Assembly: GCA_965223505.1 (NCBI GenBank)
Contig: CBDCWP010000008.1
Location: 110,560 to 174,559 of the forward strand
Origin: Planctomycetota bacterium
GTDB taxonomy: Bacteria; Planctomycetota; PLA2; JAEUHO01
Direction: 5' to 3'
Length of the DNA: 64,000 bases
The translations under genes and the position numbers were made by a program. The notes below the pieces were generated by a model. The model saw nothing but the letters and a program-made list of their open reading frames with translations, searched no databases and was not told where the DNA came from. Of the stretch, positions 1 through 52,869 are shown piece by piece (the stretch's first letter is position 1; each line of letters begins with the position of its first letter).

Positions 1-753
1 CACCTTGACGCGGTCCGGCGCGAGAACGCCGAGCTCGGTGACCTCGTACTCCGCGCCGGCGCCGAGCAGCCGGATCTTGTCACGCTTCTTCAGCACGCCG
101 TCGATCAACCGCAGGTAGATCACGACGCCGCGGAACTCGTCGAACACCGCGTCGAACAGCAGTGCTTTGAGCGGTCCGTCGGGGTCGCCGTGCGGCGGCG
201 GAATCACGTCGATGATGCGGTCGAGCACCTCGCGGGCCCCGTCGCCCGTCTTCGCCGAGCAGTGCAGCGCCTCTTCGCCCGAGATGCCGAGTACGGCCTC
301 CATCTCCTCGGCGACGCGCTCCGGCCGCGACGTGGACATGTCGGTCTTGTTGAGGACGGGAATCAGCTCGAGGTCGGCCTCGATGGCGAGGTAGGTGTTC
401 GCCACGGTCTGGGCCTCGACGCCCTGCGTCGAGTCGACCAGCAGGATCGCCCCTTCGCACGCCGCGAGTGAGCGACTGACCTCGTACGTGAAGTCGACGT
501 GCCCGGGCGTATCGATGAGATTGAGGACGTATTCCTTGCCGTCCTTCGTGTAGGGCATGCGCACCGCGCGCGCCTTGATCGTGATGCCGCGCTCGCGCTC
601 GAGGTCGAGGTCGTCGAGCACCTGCGCGGACTTGACGCCCCGCTCGACCAGGCCCGTGATCTCCAGGAAACGGTCCGCGAGCGTGGACTTCCCATGGTCG
701 ATGTGAGCGACGATGGCGAAATTGCGGATGTGGGAGATGGGGCCCGCGGTCAT
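1..753 (-). CDS. lepA: Translation elongation factor 4 (LepA), N-terminal part; runs off the window start
   Basis: Manual translation from ATG at 753: [31 protein letters not shown]...[14 protein letters not shown]...[40 protein letters not shown]...NKTD; canonical LepA G-domain motifs. Absent from the ORF track because no stop codon lies in the window. Confidence 0.97.
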
Positions 754-43716: not shown

Positions 43717-44203
43717 CGGTTCGTCTCCGTTCGTCCCCGGATTGGACACCCACGGGCCGCGCGGGTTCGGGCCGATCGCGCGGATCGCGTCTCGCGACGG
43801 ATTGGCGCGGCCGACGGCACTCCGTGCGCTCGCGCACGGTTCGAGGGAATTCTCGGCGCCTGCCATGCGTCCTTGCAAGTGCAAGGCGTACGCCCGCAGG
43901 TGGTTAGGGATTCGAAGCGAGGTCGGTTCGCGACTTGCGGGTAGGTGCGCGCGGAGGTGCAGGAATGGCCCGGTGCGGCACGCAACCACGAACCTCGACA
44001 GTTGGCGGTGTGTGCCCGTGCCCGAAGGGTGGTCCAGACGGCGGGGGCGCACGGCGCGTCGGCCGGGCCATCCCTGCTCTTCCGTCTAGCCGCTCCTGCT
44101 GAGGCCCGGACGGTGCGATCTCGAGAACCCCCAGGGCCGCACCCATCCCGGTTGGGGGCGGAATGACAGGGACTTCGCGCTACCGTCGTGGCGGAGGTCC
44201 GCC

Positions 44204-45361: not shown

Positions 45362-46738
45362 ATGGCTTCCGCTTCCCTGCCGCTGGCGCTCGTCGTCGAG
45401 GACGACACCGCGTTCCGCACCAGCCTCGCCGCGCTCGTGCGCACCGAGGGGTTCGACGTGCGCGAGGCCGCCAACCTCGCGGACGCCCGCTCCGCGCTCG
45501 ACGAGCGCGAGCCGGACCTGGTCATGCTCGATCTCGAGCTGCCCGACGGGCGCGGCCTCGACCTCAAGCTCTCCGACGCCATTCCGCCGGAGACGCCCTT
45601 CGTGGTCGTCACGGGCGATGCGAGCGCGCAGGCCGCGCGCCTCGCGCTGCGCGAAGGCGCAGCCGACTACCTCACGAAGCCGCTGCAGCCCGGACAGCTC
45701 AAGGCCGTTCTGCACGCGACCCTCGCGAACCGCAAGTTGCGCGACGAGGTGCAAGGGCTTCGCGGGGCGTTGCGCGACGCCGGACGCTTCGGCAGTCTCG
45801 TCGGCCGCTCCGCGCCGATGCAGCGCGTGTACGACCTCATCACGCGCGTCAGCGCGACCGCCGCACCCGTGCTCGTCACCGGGGAGAGCGGAACGGGCAA
45901 GGAGCTGGTGGCCTCGACGATCCACGAGATGAGTCCGCGCAAGTCCGGCGCCTTCGTCGCCGTCAACTGCGGCGCGATTCCCGAGACCTTGATCGAGAGC
46001 AAGCTATTCGGCCACGAGAAAGGCGCGTTCACCGGCGCCGACGCGCGGCACCAGGGCGTGTTCGAACGCGCGGACGGCGGCACGTTGTTCCTCGACGAGA
46101 TCGGCGAGATGCCGATGGAGCTGCAGGTGCGTTTGTTGCGCGTTCTCGAGACGTCGTCGTTCACCCGCGTCGGCGGCACGGAGGAGATTCGTACCGACGT
46201 GCGACTCGTCGCCGCGACGAACCGGGATCCGCGCGAGTCGATCCGCGACGGCCGGTTGCGCGAAGACCTCTTTCACCGGCTCAACGTGTTTCCGATCCAC
46301 CTACCGCCGCTTCGCAAGCGCGAGGGCGACGTCGCCTTGCTCGCGTTGCACTTCCTCGAGAGCCTGAATCGGGCGGAAGGCGAACACAAGCGCTTCAGCT
46401 CTCGCGCACTGTCGCGGTTGGCCGGTGCGGAGTGGACGGGCAACGTGCGCGAGCTCAAGAACGTCGTTCATCGCGCATGGATCTTGACCGCCGGCGACGT
46501 CATCAAGCCCGAGTCGGTGCGCGCGCATGCCGGTACGTACGAGGCGCAGGACGACGACGACGCGGAGCGCATCGAGGTCGTCGTCGGGTCGAGCCTCGCG
46601 GACGCCGAGCGACGCATCGTCCTCGCGACTCTCGCGCATTGCGAAGGGAACAAGCGCAAGACCGCCCGCGTGCTCGGCGTGAGCGCGAAGACGCTCTACA
46701 AGCGGCTCGCCGAGTACGAGGACGGCGCCGCGTCGTAA
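45362..46738 (+). CDS. Sigma54-dependent response regulator (NtrC family)
   Basis: REC domain (VVEDD, LDLELPD, KP), GESGTGKE, FGHEKGAFTGA, LFLDEIGEM, REDLFHRL, GNVRELKN, Fis-type HTH. Confidence 0.96.
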   Translation: MASASLPLALVVEDDTAFRTSLAALVRTEGFDVREAANLADARSALDEREPDLVMLDLELPDGRGLDLKLSDAIPPETPFVVVTGDASAQAARLALREGAADYLTKPLQPGQLKAVLHATLANRKLRDEVQGLRGALRDAGRFGSLVGRSAPMQRVYDLITRVSATAAPVLVTGESGTGKELVASTIHEMSPRKSGAFVAVNCGAIPETLIESKLFGHEKGAFTGADARHQGVFERADGGTLFLDEIGEMPMELQVRLLRVLETSSFTRVGGTEEIRTDVRLVAATNRDPRESIRDGRLREDLFHRLNVFPIHLPPLRKREGDVALLALHFLESLNRAEGEHKRFSSRALSRLAGAEWTGNVRELKNVVHRAWILTAGDVIKPESVRAHAGTYEAQDDDDAERIEVVVGSSLADAERRIVLATLAHCEGNKRKTARVLGVSAKTLYKRLAEYEDGAAS

Positions 46739-46916
46739 GGGTGGACGCAGGCATGCGACGAACGACCCGTGGGTGCGCGCCACGCCCGGACTCCCCGGCT
46801 GTGGAGTTCTTGCCCGCCCTCGAGGCACGTCGCGAGGCTCGACTGGCCATTTCAAGGGCGCGGAATGCCGGTTGCGTGGCGCCGGGCCGGAAGGACCAGC
46901 GAAAGACGCAAGGCGT

Positions 46917-47270
46917 ATGTCCGAGAGTACCGAAGCCCCCGCTCAGCCGGCCTGGCTGCTCGTCGATCCGAAGGGCCGCATCGAAGCGGCCGGCAGCGCG
47001 GCGGAGCGGCTCTTCGCCATGTCGCGCGACGGGCTGCGCCGGCTCCGGCTCCAGGATCTCGTCGTCGAGAGCGACGGGGAGGTCCTTTGGCTGCTGCGCC
47101 GGGTCGAAAACGGCGCCGTCTGGTCGTCTCTCCTCCCGATCGGGCTGTCGGGCGTGGTTTCCCGCTGTCTCGTCCGCATTACGCACGGGAGCGACGAGCC
47201 CCCGCACTCCCTGGCCGCGCGGCGCGTCGAGTTCCGGCCGCTGGAACCGGCCGGTAGCGAAGGTCGTTGA
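46917..47270 (+). CDS. Small stand-alone PAS-like protein
   Basis: WLLVDPKGRIEAAGSAAERLFAMSRDGLRRLRLQDLV matches the PAS N-terminal pattern. Confidence 0.6.
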   Translation: MSESTEAPAQPAWLLVDPKGRIEAAGSAAERLFAMSRDGLRRLRLQDLVVESDGEVLWLLRRVENGAVWSSLLPIGLSGVVSRCLVRITHGSDEPPHSLAARRVEFRPLEPAGSEGR

Positions 47271-47327
47271 CACCCGGTTCCCAACACCGGTTGAATGCGG
47301 GTCACGCCGCGTGCGTGATTCGGAGGA

Positions 47328-49949
47328 ATGCCGGACGTGAAACACGTCTCGAAGGGCAAGAGCGTGCTCCGCTCGGTTGACCTGGGCGATCCGCAAGCCG
47401 TGCTCGCGTCGATCGTCGAGTCGAGCGCCGACGGCATCATCGGCCAGCGTCTCGACGGCACCGTGACGATCTGGAACGCCGGCGCCGAGCACATGTACGG
47501 CTGGAGCGCCAACGAGATGCTCGGCCAGTCGATCCGACGCGTGATTCCCGAGTCGCTGTTGCCCGAGGTCCAGTTCATCGCCGAGCGCGTGCGCAAGGGT
47601 GAGCGCATTCAAGAGCTGATGACGCGTCGTTTGCGCAAGGACGGCCGCGTCATCGACGTCTCGCTCACGGTCGCCGCGATTCGTTCGAAAGAGGGCCACA
47701 TCGTCGGCATGGCGACGATCGAACGCGACGTGACACGCCGCCGCCGGCTCGACGCGCTCGCCGACGGTCAGCGCCGGCTGCTCGAGACGCTGAGCCGCAC
47801 CAACCGTCTCGTGGACGGGCTGCACGATCTGCTCGACAGCTTCGTCGGCTTGACCGGCGGCAACATCACTGCCGCCGTAATGAAGGTCGAGCCCGAAAGC
47901 CACCGGCTCACACCGATCGCCTCCCGGCTGCCGCACTCCGTCGGTCGCGTGCTGCAGCAGGGCATCGAGCTCGTCCCCAACAAGCACCCGAGCGGCGAGG
48001 CCGCGTTCCATCGCCAGGCCGTCTCCGTGCCGGACGTACGCAAGTCTCCGGGCTGGGACCGGCTGAGAAACGCCGTGGTTCGCGCCGGATTCCTCTCGTG
48101 CTGCGCCACGCCGATCTTCTCGCCGGCCGGCGAGGTGCTCGGCACGCTCGACCTCTACGGCAGCGAGGCCGTCGAGCCGTCGCCGGCCGATCTCGAGGTC
48201 GCGGCCGCGCTCGCGCAGACGGCGGCGTTGGCCATCGAGCGGTCCGAGACCGTCGAGGAGCTCAAGCTGCGGCGGCAGGTGCTGCAGGCCGTCAACCAGA
48301 TCAACGCGCTGCTCGCCGCGGACCTCGACGTCGAGCGCATCGTGCGGCGCGTCAACGAGGAGGCGACCGAGCTGGTCGGCGCGCAGATGGGCGCGTTCTT
48401 CTACAGCGAGGTCGAGTCCGAGGGCCTCGGCTTCCGGCTCTATAGCCTGGCGGGATCGAACCGCGACATGTTCACGCAGTTCGACATGCCGCGTAACACG
48501 CCGCTGTTCAGCCAGACGCTGACGGTCGGCGCCCTGCAGCGGTTCAGCGACGTCACGCGCGAGCCCCGCTACGGCAAGAACGAACCCTACGCCGGCATTC
48601 CCGAGGGGCACCCGATCGTGCGCAGCTTCATGTCGGCGCCGGTGATGGCGCGCTCGGGCGAGGTGCTCGGCATGTTGCTCTTCGGCCACGCCGAGCCGGG
48701 CAAGTTCACGCGCTGGCACGAGGAGATCCTGCGCGGCATCGCGTCGCAGACCGCGCTCGCGATCGACAACGCGCGCCTGTACAGCCAGGCGGCGGACCGC
48801 GCGAACGCGCTGGCCGATGCGAACCAGCGCAAGAACGAGTTCCTCGCGATGCTCGGTCACGAGCTGCGCAACCCGCTCGGGGCCATGGCCGCGAGCCTTG
48901 CCGTCATCCAAGACAGCCTTCCGCGAGGCACGGACGGCCGCGAAGCCGCGGACATCCTCTACCGGCAGTCGAAGCACATGAGCCGGCTCGTGGACGACCT
49001 GTTGGATCTGAGTCGCATCACGCGCGGGAAGATTCCGCTTCGTCGGGAGACGATCGATGCCCGCCGCATCGTGCGCTACGCCGTCGAGAGCGCGCGCAGC
49101 GTCGCCTACGACAACGACCAGGAGATCGAGTACCCGATTCCGCCCGAGCCCATCTGGGTGAACGCCGATCCCGTGCGCGTCGAGCAGATCGTGGGCAATC
49201 TGCTTCACAACGCGATGAAGTTCTCGCCGCGCGGCGGCGTCATCGAGGTCGAGGCGGAGACGACCGGCGCCGAGGCGCGTCTCGTCGTGCGCGACAACGG
49301 CCTGGGCATCCCGGCCGAGAAGCTCGAGGCGATCTTCGGCATGTTCGCCCAGGAGCACAAGGCCGAGCGGCCGACCGGCGGCGGCGGCCTCGGTCTGGGC
49401 CTGACGCTCGTTCGCGAACTCGCGCGCCTGCACGGCGGGTGGGTGAGCGCGCACAGCGACGGTCCGGGCAAGGGCGCCGAATTCGAGGTGCGGCTGCCCA
49501 CCAGCGACGCGCCAGTGACGCCCGCGCCGCCGCCCCAGTCGACGGGTACGCCCCTCGAGGTCCGGTTGCTCATGCCGGTGCTGCGCGTCGTGCTCGCCGA
49601 GGACCAGCCCGACGCCGCCCGCGCCATGACGTTGTTGCTCGAGCGGTGGGGGCACCGCGTGATCCACGTCGCCACCGGGCCCGACGCGCTGACGGCGATC
49701 AAGAACCGCAAGCCCGACGCGGCGCTCATCGACATCGGCCTGCCGGGACTGGACGGCTGGCGGGTGGCGCGCGCGATTCGCAAGACGGCGGGTTTCGAGA
49801 CGCTGCCGATGGCCGCGCTCACGGGACTGGGGCAGCACGTCGACGAGCGGCGTTCGCGTCAAGCCGGCTTCGAGCGTCACTTCGTCAAGCCCGCGGAGCC
49901 CGACGTGCTCAAGCGCTGGCTGGAGGAGATCTGCCGGGCCATTCGGTAG
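47328..49949 (+). CDS. Hybrid sensor histidine kinase (PAS-GAF-GAF-HisKA-HATPase-REC)
   Basis: IVESSADGII...WNAGAE.MYGW (PAS); two GAF domains ending ALAIE/ALAIDNARLY; FLAMLGHELRNPL; NLLHNAMKF; GLGLGL; REC IDIGLPGLDG. Confidence 0.96.
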   Translation: MPDVKHVSKGKSVLRSVDLGDPQAVLASIVESSADGIIGQRLDGTVTIWNAGAEHMYGWSANEMLGQSIRRVIPESLLPEVQFIAERVRKGERIQELMTRRLRKDGRVIDVSLTVAAIRSKEGHIVGMATIERDVTRRRRLDALADGQRRLLETLSRTNRLVDGLHDLLDSFVGLTGGNITAAVMKVEPESHRLTPIASRLPHSVGRVLQQGIELVPNKHPSGEAAFHRQAVSVPDVRKSPGWDRLRNAVVRAGFLSCCATPIFSPAGEVLGTLDLYGSEAVEPSPADLEVAAALAQTAALAIERSETVEELKLRRQVLQAVNQINALLAADLDVERIVRRVNEEATELVGAQMGAFFYSEVESEGLGFRLYSLAGSNRDMFTQFDMPRNTPLFSQTLTVGALQRFSDVTREPRYGKNEPYAGIPEGHPIVRSFMSAPVMARSGEVLGMLLFGHAEPGKFTRWHEEILRGIASQTALAIDNARLYSQAADRANALADANQRKNEFLAMLGHELRNPLGAMAASLAVIQDSLPRGTDGREAADILYRQSKHMSRLVDDLLDLSRITRGKIPLRRETIDARRIVRYAVESARSVAYDNDQEIEYPIPPEPIWVNADPVRVEQIVGNLLHNAMKFSPRGGVIEVEAETTGAEARLVVRDNGLGIPAEKLEAIFGMFAQEHKAERPTGGGGLGLGLTLVRELARLHGGWVSAHSDGPGKGAEFEVRLPTSDAPVTPAPPPQSTGTPLEVRLLMPVLRVVLAEDQPDAARAMTLLLERWGHRVIHVATGPDALTAIKNRKPDAALIDIGLPGLDGWRVARAIRKTAGFETLPMAALTGLGQHVDERRSRQAGFERHFVKPAEPDVLKRWLEEICRAIR

Positions 49950-50025
49950 AGAAAGTGCACACCTCGAGCGTGCCCGAACTCCACGTTTCGCTCATTGTTT
50001 CGGCGCCGGCCCCAGGTACTTGCGT

Positions 50026-50042
50026 TTGGCACGGCGACTGCG
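50026..50042 (+). promoter_or_regulatory. Sigma54 (-24/-12) promoter
   Basis: TTGGCACG-GCGA-CTGCG, exact GG-N10-GC spacing; consensus TGGCACG-N4-TTGC. Confidence 0.7.
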
Positions 50043-50052
50043 AATGACGTCA

Positions 50053-50190
50053 CCCGGATCGAGCGAGGTGACGAAATGAGAGCGCGTGTCCTGCTCTCAC
50101 TTCCGCCCCTAATAAGCCTACCGCCACACACACACACCACTTCGCTTGATGGGGCCGTGCGAACAGCGATGTTCGTGCGGCCCTTTTTCT
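50053..50190 (+). ncRNA. Candidate sigma54-dependent small RNA (~135 nt)
   Basis: Bounded by the sigma54 promoter and an intrinsic terminator; hairpin TGAGAGC/GCTCTCA (50077-50099), then an unpaired C/A-rich tract. Confidence 0.55.
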
Positions 50191-50191
50191 T
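50152..50191 (+). terminator. Intrinsic (Rho-independent) terminator
   Basis: 14-bp stem GGGCCGTGCGAACA-gcga-TGTTCGTGCGGCCC (two G-U pairs) followed by TTTTTCTT. Confidence 0.88.
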
Positions 50192-50299
50192 GGTTTCGGC
50201 GAGCTGGCGCGCGTGTGCCGACGGACCTCCCGAACTCCACGCGGCGGTTCGTTTCTCCACGCCGGTAGGTTCGGGCGCCGCAGCGAATGGGGCTCGGGA

Positions 50300-50316
50300 T
50301 TGGCACGGGCGCTGCA
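50300..50316 (+). promoter_or_regulatory. Second sigma54 (-24/-12) promoter
   Basis: TTGGCACG-GGCG-CTGCA, GG-N10-GC; about 36 bp upstream of ATG 50353, which has a GGAGG SD. Confidence 0.75.
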
Positions 50317-50352
50317 ATACACCGGCGGGAGGAGATCGGAGGGCCGACGTCC

Positions 50353-50688
50353 ATGCGTGAGCATCTCGAACAACGCGTACGTTCGGAGCTGAACCGCAGC
50401 CGCAAGCAGATCGACCGCCTGCGCATGAGTGCCTACCTGCTCAAGCTCGAGCTCCGCGACCGGCATGAGGCCGTCATCGCCGTCCTCGATCTCAAGTGGC
50501 GGGAGCTTCGGCGCTGCTGGGTCGAGCTGTCCGCGGAGCCCGGGAACGAGCAGGCGACCGCCGAGCTCGAATGCGCCCGGCGCCGCCTTTGGGAGGCGAT
50601 CGATGACGCCCGTTGGGTCGGACCCGGGCGCCATCGCTTTCGGGACGAGCCGGCATCCTCCGCGGGAGTGACCAAACACATCGGCTGA
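50353..50688 (+). CDS. Small helical/coiled-coil hypothetical protein
   Basis: SD plus sigma54 promoter; MREHLEQRVRSELNRSRKQIDRLR... amphipathic helices. Confidence 0.7.
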   Translation: MREHLEQRVRSELNRSRKQIDRLRMSAYLLKLELRDRHEAVIAVLDLKWRELRRCWVELSAEPGNEQATAELECARRRLWEAIDDARWVGPGRHRFRDEPASSAGVTKHIG

Positions 50689-50880
50689 CTTTCGACTCGG
50701 TGCGTTCGTCCTGCAAGGCGCTTCGAGTCGACGCGATCGCGCTCGCGGGCGCATGGCTTCGCGTAGAAGCCCATGTCCCCCCGGCCCTCGGGCCGGTCGC
50801 ACGGACCGCGCGGGTGATCTCGCCCGCGCGGTCCTCCTCTTCCCCCGCTGGCGGGGCGCGGCCCGATTGAATGGGGTAGA

Positions 50881-52869
50881 GTGCGGGCGCCTCCTGGCGG
50901 AGGGGTGTTCTTGATCGCGCGTCTCGCACTTGCCGTTCTGACCGTCGTATGCCTGGCCGCGCCGCCGGTTTGGGCGGAGCTCGCGGAGAAGCTGCAGGCG
51001 GTCACCGCGGCACAGGACGCCGGTGACGACGAGGCCATGGTCAAGGCGCTCGACGGGCTCGCCAAGGCGTACAACGCCAGCGACGACGACTCGATGCGCG
51101 AGGAGATCCTCACCGCGCTCGGATTCCTGCTCCTGGACGAAGACGAGTTCCCCAAGTCGCGACCGGTGGCCGCGCGCGTCCTCGGCGATCTGAAGGACAG
51201 AGCCGGCGCTTGGTACGAGCTCGAGGGCTTCATGCCGACCGCGGACCAGACGAACACCGGCGCGTTCGAGCACGCCGTGGTCGTCGCGGCCGGGAAGCTC
51301 AACCAGGGCGAGGTGCTCGACCAGCTTCTCGAGTTCGCCCGCGAGGCGGCGGACGACAAGCTCGCGGCGGCCGCGGTGACGTCGCTCGCGGCCTTCGACA
51401 AGAGCACCGACGCGCATCAGCGCGTAACGAAGGCTCTGATGGACCTCGCCGCGACGTTGCTGCCCGACGAGGCCGCGGACGCGCAGGACAAGGCGCGCTG
51501 GGCGGCGCTTCGCCCGCCGCTCGTCGCGACGCTGCGAACGCTCACCGGGCGCAAGAAGGCGAGCGCGAAGGACTTCGCCGCGCAGGGAACGCGCGGACGG
51601 CGCACGACGTCCGACGGCTCGACGGTCCCGCCGGGTCCCACGCCGCCCGACAAGGCGCCCGACCCGACCGCGCCCACGAAGACCACGCCGTGGGAACAGC
51701 TCTTCGCCAACTTCAAGGCCGAAGAGCCCGGCAACCGGCTCGGTGCGGTCGACGAGGTGTTCGACCGCGAGCTCGTCGGGGACGACGTGCGCGGGGCGTT
51801 GATCGAGCTGGTCGAGATCGAGACCGACTGGCGCGTCCTGTCGATGGCACTGCGCTGTCTCGCGTTCCAGGACACGATGGACGAGCCCGCGGCCCGCATG
51901 CTGAAGCACAAGAAGCACCGCATCTGGCAGGTCCGGCTCGCGCTCGCCGAGGGTCTGCTCGCGTACCGGCACCTGAAGGGCGTGGAGACGTTGATCGACC
52001 TGCTCGGCGACAAGCGCATGCGCGTGCGCGACGAGGCGGGCGAATCGCTCTACAAGCTCACCGGCAAGGACCTCGGCGTCGTGCAGAAGCGCTGGGCCAA
52101 GTGGCTGCGCGAGCAGAAGGGCATCATTCGGTTCATTCCGCCGAAGCACCGTCCGAAGGACTACGGGACGGTCGACCGGGACAAGGGCTACGCGTTCGCC
52201 TACAACCGCTTCTTCGGGACGCGCATCCGCAGCGACCGCGTGATGCTCGTCCTCGACAAGAGCGAGAGTATGTACTACGGCCTCTGGGACCAGACCGTTC
52301 TCGAGGTCGAGATGTTCCTCGGGACGGCGCTCCCGACGACATTCTTCGGCGTCGTGGAGTTCGACGCGAAGCCTCGGATCTGGCAGAAGCGGCTCGCGCC
52401 GGCGAACGACAAGAACGCGGACGACGTGTTGAGTTTCCTCAAGCGCGCCAAGCCCTACGGTCCGACCAACGTGATGGATTCGATGCGCCAGGCCATGAAC
52501 GTTCGCGATGTCGACACGGTCGTCCTGTTGTCCGACGGCGTACCCAACCGCGGGAACCCCAGGGATCCGGCGCCGATCCTCGCGCAGATCCGTCGCACCA
52601 ATCGCTACACCCGGATCGGGATCCACACCCTGCAGATGGAGCTCGGGCGCCGCTTCGAGCACGACGGACCCAGGGGCGAGGACAAGCCCCCGCTCGACGA
52701 GAAGGAGAAGCTCCGCCGCGAGCGCGTGCGGGCCGGCGCGGAGAACACGGCGCTCGGCGGCTTCCTCAAGCGCATGGCCGACGAGAACGACGGGACGTTC
52801 GGCGTCGTGTTCGCCGACTGGTACGCGCCGCCGCCCGACGCCCAGCTGCGTGACGGAACCGACAAGTGA
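50881..52869 (+). CDS. Secreted HEAT-repeat plus VWA-domain protein
   Basis: Signal peptide ending VWA-EL (true start probably TTG 50911 after GGAGGGG); WQVRLALAEGL, VRDEAGESLYKLTGKDLG..W.KW; MIDAS DKSESM, TN, LLSDG. Confidence 0.87.
   Translation: MRAPPGGGVFLIARLALAVLTVVCLAAPPVWAELAEKLQAVTAAQDAGDDEAMVKALDGLAKAYNASDDDSMREEILTALGFLLLDEDEFPKSRPVAARVLGDLKDRAGAWYELEGFMPTADQTNTGAFEHAVVVAAGKLNQGEVLDQLLEFAREAADDKLAAAAVTSLAAFDKSTDAHQRVTKALMDLAATLLPDEAADAQDKARWAALRPPLVATLRTLTGRKKASAKDFAAQGTRGRRTTSDGSTVPPGPTPPDKAPDPTAPTKTTPWEQLFANFKAEEPGNRLGAVDEVFDRELVGDDVRGALIELVEIETDWRVLSMALRCLAFQDTMDEPAARMLKHKKHRIWQVRLALAEGLLAYRHLKGVETLIDLLGDKRMRVRDEAGESLYKLTGKDLGVVQKRWAKWLREQKGIIRFIPPKHRPKDYGTVDRDKGYAFAYNRFFGTRIRSDRVMLVLDKSESMYYGLWDQTVLEVEMFLGTALPTTFFGVVEFDAKPRIWQKRLAPANDKNADDVLSFLKRAKPYGPTNVMDSMRQAMNVRDVDTVVLLSDGVPNRGNPRDPAPILAQIRRTNRYTRIGIHTLQMELGRRFEHDGPRGEDKPPLDEKEKLRRERVRAGAENTALGGFLKRMADENDGTFGVVFADWYAPPPDAQLRDGTDK

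Follow-up and report, generated by a model that had tools for sequence, protein, structure and literature searches.

The window considered here is a stretch of 64,000 nucleotides of DNA from a Planctomycetota bacterium whose genome is metagenome-assembled (5.15 Mb in 44 contigs, 67% G+C, 92% complete). Its plus strand carries a two-component signalling cluster that contains an NtrC-type enhancer-binding protein (45362..46738, +) with a receiver, a sigma-54 interaction domain and a Fis-type HTH (Pfam Sigma54_activat at 1.2e-71, Response_reg and HTH_8), and a hybrid histidine kinase of PAS-GAF-HisKA-HATPase-receiver architecture by Pfam (47328..49949, +). A RidA-family gene and a small HATPase protein (Pfam) lie further upstream on the same strand. 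The gap between activator and kinase (46739-47327) measures 590 nt here versus about 137 nt in the related genome G001, and it contains an ORF of 113 aa (46918-47257) without Pfam family. Past the kinase stop codon (49949), 403 nt separate the kinase from the next start codon (50353), which belongs to a 111-aa protein without Pfam family (50353..50688, +). The small-protein gene is followed on the same strand by a HEAT/VWA gene (50881-52869), an order that differs from that in the relatives G001 and G044.

The gap between kinase and small-protein gene holds a short promoter-to-terminator unit, and the activator gene lies 3.3 kb upstream of it in the same orientation. The enhancer-binding protein is presumed to be the candidate activator of the two promoters P1 and P2 described below. 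The genome encodes rpoN (Sigma54_DBD on contig C37), an enhancer-binding protein gene adjoins the predicted RNA, and sigma-54 activator domains give 33 matches genome-wide, 23 of them strong. The gap is found without any difference in contigs from two DNA runs of one sample, among four runs of one study, two runs that may themselves be the source data of the assembly. The contig from run X1 covers the whole stretch and that from X2 covers 49943-50821, both with 0 differences; X3 and X4 gave no contig across the unit. A search of RNA sequencing runs for 48500-51500 found none that contains this DNA.

The upstream promoter, P1, reads TTGGCACGGCGACTGCGA (50026..50043, +) and begins 78 nt downstream of the kinase stop codon. 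Its core TGGCACGGCGACTGC occupies 50027-50041 and, with the preceding base, TTGGCACGGCGACTGC occupies 50026-50041; this is an exact TGGCACG-N4-CTGC, and the GG-N10-GC pattern lies within the consensus TGGCAC-N5-TTGC, with CTGC as the -12 element versus the classic TTGC. The -24/-12 promoter that a preliminary description of this DNA had reported can therefore be read directly in the letters, and transcription is predicted to start near 50052-50054. TGGCACG-N4-YTGC occurs at two sites in the 64-kb window (50027 and 50301), both on the plus strand, against an expectation from shuffles of 0.12 +/- 0.36, and one of 100 shuffles reached two; genome-wide (5.15 Mb) there are 13 sites. The motif by itself is not proof of a promoter: for TGGCAC-N5-YTGC, 9 of 25 matches in the genome fall inside predicted genes. 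P1 also resembles the sigma-54 promoters of its own lineage, namely P2, the three orthologous promoters of the relatives and the promoters of an RNA family on contig C43.

The second site is P2, TTGGCACGGGCGCTGCAA (50300..50317, +; core 50301-50315), which is predicted to serve the small-protein operon. It lies 274 nt downstream of P1 and 52 nt upstream of the ATG of the 111-aa protein. Neither P2 nor the duplicated 13-nt box that accompanies both promoters figured in the preliminary description. The box, CCCGAACTCCACG (repeat family D1), stands at 49973..49985 (+) and again, upstream of P2, at 50229..50241 (+); its exact form occurs in two copies in the 5.15-Mb genome, both within the gap between kinase and small-protein gene. 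The P1 and P2 regions align with a score of 18.8, while shuffles gave 9.9 +/- 1.6 with a maximum of 16.2 (0 of 500 reached the observed score; z 5.4). By sequence, P1 and P2, each with the 13-nt box upstream, are tandem duplicates. The blocks are 70-74% identical overall, with the 13-nt box, TTGGCACGG and CTGC identical, and the identity of the core elements inside such diverged blocks suggests that both copies are under selection. An imperfect palindrome, GTGCACACCTCGAGCGTGC (49955..49973, no strand assigned), precedes the predicted P1 start by about 88 nt and occurs once in the genome in its exact form; it is a candidate activator-binding site.

P1 is predicted to direct the synthesis of an RNA of about 140 nt (50053..50192, +). 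The region 50053-50195 folds at -59.7 kcal/mol with a z of -5.15 (0 of 200 shuffles as good), and the RNA body without the terminator reaches z -3.85 (again 0 of 200), as compared with z -1.86 and 8 of 200 shuffles for the reverse strand. Good folding, as far as the model goes, is limited to the plus strand. The fold is closed by a 13-bp stem (50058-50070 with 50138-50150, +), absent from the preliminary description, which encloses a hairpin and a single-stranded tract. The hairpin (50077-50099) had been recognized before as one of seven base pairs; it is present, with eight pairs, one of them G-U. It is followed by CTTCCGCC at 50100-50107, by CCTACCGCC at 50117-50125 and by a (CA)n tract that extends to about 50140. 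The predicted closing stem thus displays unpaired a C/A-rich, G-poor stretch of 34 nt, CGCCCCUAAUAAGCCUACCGCCACACACACACAC (50104..50137, +), whose unpaired probability is mostly at least 0.9 in the model and which is likely the working surface of the RNA. The tract had been called atypical for this genome, and it is so, since 41-nt windows with at most three G make up 1.9e-4 of all windows of the genome.

The unit ends in an intrinsic terminator (50151..50192, +). Its stem (50151-50184) has 15 pairs, one more than had been counted for what was correctly seen as a terminator with a T-run; nine are G-C and two are G-U, the loop has 4 nt and TTTTCTTGGT follows. The terminator fold is specific to the plus strand because the two G-U pairs exist on that strand only. 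The same two G-U pairs caused a strict terminator scan to overlook this terminator, and the counts of that scan are therefore lower bounds.

The unit is short, ends in its own terminator and is without a coding frame. The earlier view of a self-contained non-coding unit running from promoter to terminator agrees with these features, but its statement that no ORF ends inside does not, since mechanical ORFs at 49439..50047 (+), 50050..52662 (-) and 50118..50426 (-) all do. The ORFs tested that overlap the unit have a GC3 of 0.64-0.71, as compared with 0.82 in the small-protein gene and 0.92 in the kinase, and on this account none appears to be coding. A frame from the ATG at 50076, behind GAGGUG, was rejected as it passes through the terminator with a GC3 of 0.64.

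The predicted RNA has no recognizable relative in the collections searched. The proposed search with Rfam 15 covariance models on 50026-50192 returned no match with E up to 10, and it covered Qrr, CrcZ, GlmY/Z, Pxr and CcsR as far as Rfam 15 contains models of them; at the gathering score, the whole window gave one match, a tRNA. No further copy of the unit was found in its own genome, and a mobile element was rejected as its origin because the unit is single copy. Similarity of the RNA body to the small-protein gene or to flanking DNA was not above that of shuffles, and its six-frame translation matched the small-protein profile with a best E of 0.028 (3.5 bits). Compared with the C-rich 3′ UTRs that follow the small-protein genes in the relatives, the RNA body showed no significant similarity (z at most 1.5); it is like them in the order of parts only.

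The arrangement of kinase, gap and small-protein gene has syntenic orthologues in G001, G042 and G044. The search took in 29 family-level and 40 order-level genomes, the latter with a small-protein profile. All three relatives carry a kinase orthologue in the same position. The closest homologue of the small protein is a metagenome protein of 63% identity (P0002), encoded on a 2428-bp JGI contig. A scan of genome contigs for the small-protein gene found G001 as the sole relative, a metagenome scan with the small-protein pattern gave no match, and a metagenome scan with the C-terminal half of the kinase gave 80 loci of 38-53% identity, none of which (0 of 80) has the small-protein gene.

In the three syntenic relatives the gap is 155-180 nt long and contains a single sigma-54 promoter, placed 43-49 nt upstream of the start codon; TGCAGG-N3-4-TGCAC repeats occupy the place held in the window by the palindrome 49955..49973. 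Neither a terminator nor an RNA unit is present between kinase and small-protein gene in any of the three, and a DNA search of 41 genomes (the genome itself and 40 others of the family, order and phylum) gave matches in its own genome only. Conservation of the unit in related genomes, which had been put forward as a check on it, is thus not observed, and the unit is specific to its lineage. Since the relatives are without an intrinsic terminator between kinase and promoter, the one in the unit was not inherited as the end of the kinase operon. From their single-promoter gap it also follows that P1 occupies the ancestral place by the kinase stop codon, whereas P2 retains the ancestral distance to the start codon; by this comparison of sequences, the roughly 185 nt between P1 and P2 are new.

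The small-protein gene is itself followed by a structured, C-rich 3′ region (50689..50880, +), within which a 12-bp hairpin (50803-50834) is succeeded by UCCUCUUCCCCC in place of a T-run. The small-protein gene of the relatives likewise has a sigma-54 promoter, and after it comes a structured 3′ UTR of 190-250 nt in which C outnumbers G and which ends in a strong terminator. In all four genomes the region 3′ of the gene is long, structured and richer in C than in G (window 50689-50880; L012:7609-7795, minus strand; L013:3976-4160, plus strand; L021:1250-1503, minus strand), and those of the G042 and G044 small-protein genes are clearly homologous (z 20). This 3′ region could be a regulatory RNA derived from a 3′ UTR. 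As the lineage places C-rich RNA behind sigma-54 promoters, the prior probability that P1 drives a real RNA is raised. Further downstream, the HEAT/VWA gene (TTG at 50911) has its ribosome-binding site paired with an upstream anti-site in the small hairpin CCUCC-UGGC-GGAGG (50890-50903), and this hairpin could be a translational lock.

Two modes of action had been suggested for the RNA: pairing with ribosome-binding sites, and the sequestration of a protein. The motifs on which the first relies exist, namely GGCGGAGG at 44190, GGCGGGAG at 50324 and GGCGGAGG again at 50896, but these targets do not rise above background. With duplexfold, the three sites rank 485, 673 and 114 among 3171; with cofold, the fractions of a random sample of 599 genes that equal or surpass them are 0.27, 0.34 and 0.74. 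A motif of this kind in ribosome-site position is found in 59 of 3172 predicted genes, and the orthologous small-protein start regions of G001, G042 and G044 are without it. The second suggestion, a protein sponge, lacks a visible partner, as neither Hfq nor CsrA was found in this genome, which is 92% complete. CrcZ-type sponge RNAs carry several A-rich binding motifs and work where Hfq/Crc is present; the unit has a single C/A tract. A search for ANTAR proteins gave no match, and its controls gave no match either.

Comparable units were sought throughout the genome as tracts of 41 nt with at most three G followed by a hairpin and a T-run within about 120 nt. The scan returned 12 such units, five of them on the atypical contig C13. 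Three of the seven outside C13 have a sigma-54 match scoring at least 9 (of 11) within 600 nt upstream: the unit behind P1, C4:63371 and C43:573. Matches of this score number 312 in the 9.8 million positions outside C13, which corresponds to a chance of about 0.019 per 600 nt, so that two of the six other units are far above expectation.

The C43 unit (about 200-575, minus strand; L111) shows a sigma-54 promoter TTGGCACACAAAGTGCAA, a structured RNA, a tract of CCCUCC repeats, a terminator and a second C-rich module. Homologues are found at G003:C197, G014:C7 and G012:C1, three of the seven matching loci inspected, with TGGCAC and the -12 GC invariant. The C43 RNA has no match in Rfam and is apparently an undescribed, conserved family of sigma-54 small RNAs; it is better supported than the unit of the window. 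A profile of four C43 sequences searched with nhmmer gave no match to the window's unit with E up to 10, while the C43 copy itself scored 6.7e-79.

On the plus strand of C4 (63371-63830; L112), a sigma-54 promoter GTGGCACGCACGTTGCGA precedes an ORF of about 68 aa whose predicted product is acidic and contains Cys. The ORF gives way to a G-poor, CU-rich 3′ UTR AACUUCCCUCCCCCUCC that closes with a strong terminator, and the opposite strand has an activator gene at a distance of about 2 kb. On the minus strand of C21 (about 278700-278900), a CCCUCC-rich tract precedes a very stable terminator (-37.9 kcal/mol); it is without a sigma-54 match, a TTGAAA...TAGAGT-like sequence lies upstream, and the locus may encode another C-rich small RNA, under a promoter of a different type. 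On C13, the G+C content falls from 67-69% to 53-63% past about 70 kb. The low-GC part at about 133-197 kb (L140-L142) contains some 25 matches to TGGYAY-N5-TTGC with AT-rich spacers, many of them in divergent pairs, among genes for catalase, MscS channels, AI-2E transporters, cytochrome oxidase, aldehyde dehydrogenase and amylase, together with a response-regulator-type activator and kinases. Two readings of this part are at hand: a stress island under sigma-54 control, or DNA that is foreign or mis-binned.

The proposal that an sRNA is an output of the neighbouring signalling cluster is thus borne out as regards a promoter-terminator unit beside an NtrC-type activator and kinase in a genome with rpoN, and not as regards the named targets, the sponge and conservation. 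The reading preferred here, to which we give about an even chance, is that of a young, lineage-specific, predicted sigma-54-dependent RNA of about 140 nt, born by promoter duplication, co-activated with the neighbouring operon and acting through its C/A stretch. A tandem duplication would have copied some 70-90 nt in which the small-protein operon has its sigma-54 promoter and a 13-nt box. Transcription from the upstream copy, P1, would now enter some 140 nt of new sequence and stop at the strong intrinsic terminator, while the downstream copy, P2, would retain its ancestral spacing to the small-protein start codon. The NtrC-type activator, once switched on by its kinase or kinases, would fire P1 and P2 together, and the RNA and the operon mRNA would in this way be co-produced. 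The 34-nt unpaired C/A stretch would then pair with G-rich or GU-rich sequences in other RNAs independently of Hfq; base pairing without Hfq is the most likely action of the RNA. The RNA could also be produced and yet be functionless.

A more specific form of this reading is tentative, and we consider it rather unlikely as a whole. It holds that the RNA has been caught soon after its birth, feeding forward onto the neighbouring operon within a wider use of sigma-54-driven, C-rich and Hfq-independent RNAs in the family. The first two genes of the operon carry GGCGG-purine motifs at their ribosome sites, complementary to the CCGCC words of the RNA; as this motif is rare in the genome and missing from the three orthologues of the first gene, the RNA may feed forward onto its neighbour.

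A different account, unlikely in our estimation, is that the duplicated promoter and the terminator act in cis only. The terminator would block read-through from the kinase operon and from P1, the operon would depend on P2 alone, and any short RNA from P1 would be without function. It agrees with this account that the unit is missing in three of three syntenic relatives and is therefore unnecessary for the conserved circuit, that no specific target emerges with duplexfold or cofold, and that the position of the HEAT/VWA gene on the same strand after the small-protein gene, unlike the situation in G001 and G044, indicates that transcription has been rewired here. However, a terminator would suffice for such a purpose, and the account leaves unexplained the exact -24/-12 elements and the 13-nt box in the P1 copy, the 13-bp closing stem with the unpaired tract that it exposes, and the genome-wide link of sigma-54 promoters with units of G-poor tract and terminator.

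The possibility that P1 is an inactive leftover of the duplication is more doubtful still. The kinase transcript would then be ended, with a 3′ UTR of about 240 nt, by the hairpin together with the tract, which resembles a Rho-loading site. Rho loads on C-rich, G-poor unpaired RNA, which is what the tract offers, and Rho is present in the genome; the terminator lies 236 nt past the kinase stop codon on the same strand, and 9 of the 25 genomic promoter-motif matches fall inside genes. Against this, the core promoter elements have stayed identical in copies that are otherwise clearly diverged, the relatives are without a terminator at this place, and two of the six other units of G-poor tract and terminator also lie behind sigma-54 promoters. 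Least probable, and by a good measure improbable, is a leader or attenuator: the operon would have P1 as an additional promoter, and the 140-nt segment would regulate it in cis through a terminator that is bypassed in certain conditions. Leader terminators behind sigma-54 promoters are an established design (the nasF leader of Klebsiella is reportedly sigma-54-driven and controlled by NasR), and the unit lies in the operon's orientation 160 nt upstream, but folding without the 3′ arm of the terminator leaves the body unchanged and the 5′ arm nearly free, with no competing antiterminator, and the operon has a promoter of its own at the ancestral distance from the start codon.

Proteobacteria and Myxococcus offer well-known cases of sigma-54-dependent small RNAs encoded beside their activators, and a full-text literature search found nothing on such RNAs in Planctomycetota. 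Judged by its sequence, the unit of the window would belong to this known kind, a sigma-54 small RNA beside an activator, and it is predicted from one genome. Like Qrr1 beside LuxO in Vibrio, the predicted RNA is short, ends at a terminator, has a sigma-54 promoter and lies beside its presumed NtrC-type activator. It differs in that it has no sequence or Rfam match to Qrr; in that Hfq, the partner of Qrr RNAs, was not found here; in that its promoter is one copy of a duplicated promoter whose other copy serves the adjacent protein operon; in that it lies downstream of the kinase gene and is not divergent from the activator gene; and in that it is not conserved in relatives. With CrcZ/CrcY and CbrB of Pseudomonas it has in common a sigma-54-dependent RNA just downstream of a two-component system and an unpaired stretch containing C and A. 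CrcZ, however, is about 400 nt long with several A-rich motifs that tie up Hfq/Crc, whereas the window's unit, which is without an Rfam match, offers a single C-rich/(CA)n stretch of 34 nt in a genome where Hfq was not found.

The CcsR1-4 RNAs (Rfam RF02791) provide another parallel. In them, too, C-rich sequence is exposed as single strand and can base-pair with ribosome-binding sites rich in G. They are also linked to a small-protein gene, which they follow in Rhodobacter; the small-protein gene of the window has a C-rich 3′ region. The unit itself has no covariance-model match to CcsR, and the sole sub-threshold match (CcsR1, 50756-50840, 16.8 bits versus a gathering score of 65.3) falls in that 3′ region. 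The motif of the unit is CUUCCGCC / CCUACCGCC together with (CA)n, where CcsR has hairpin loops with CCUCCUCCC, and the promoter is of the sigma-54 type, whereas that of CcsR is of the heat-shock-sigma type. A further likeness is offered by the CCCUCC-repeat family of C43, which shares with the unit its genome, its promoter type and its order of parts (hairpin, unpaired G-poor C-rich tract, terminator), and which differs in being conserved across genera and in giving no profile match to the unit.

If the RNA is real, the locus would show how an RNA of this kind can be born by duplication of an enhancer-dependent promoter. Together with the C43 RNA and the C4 unit, it would then point to a set of sigma-54-controlled, C-rich RNAs in a bacterium where neither Hfq nor CsrA was found. 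Should the reading of a recent birth also hold, a single activator would now yield an RNA and an mRNA together.
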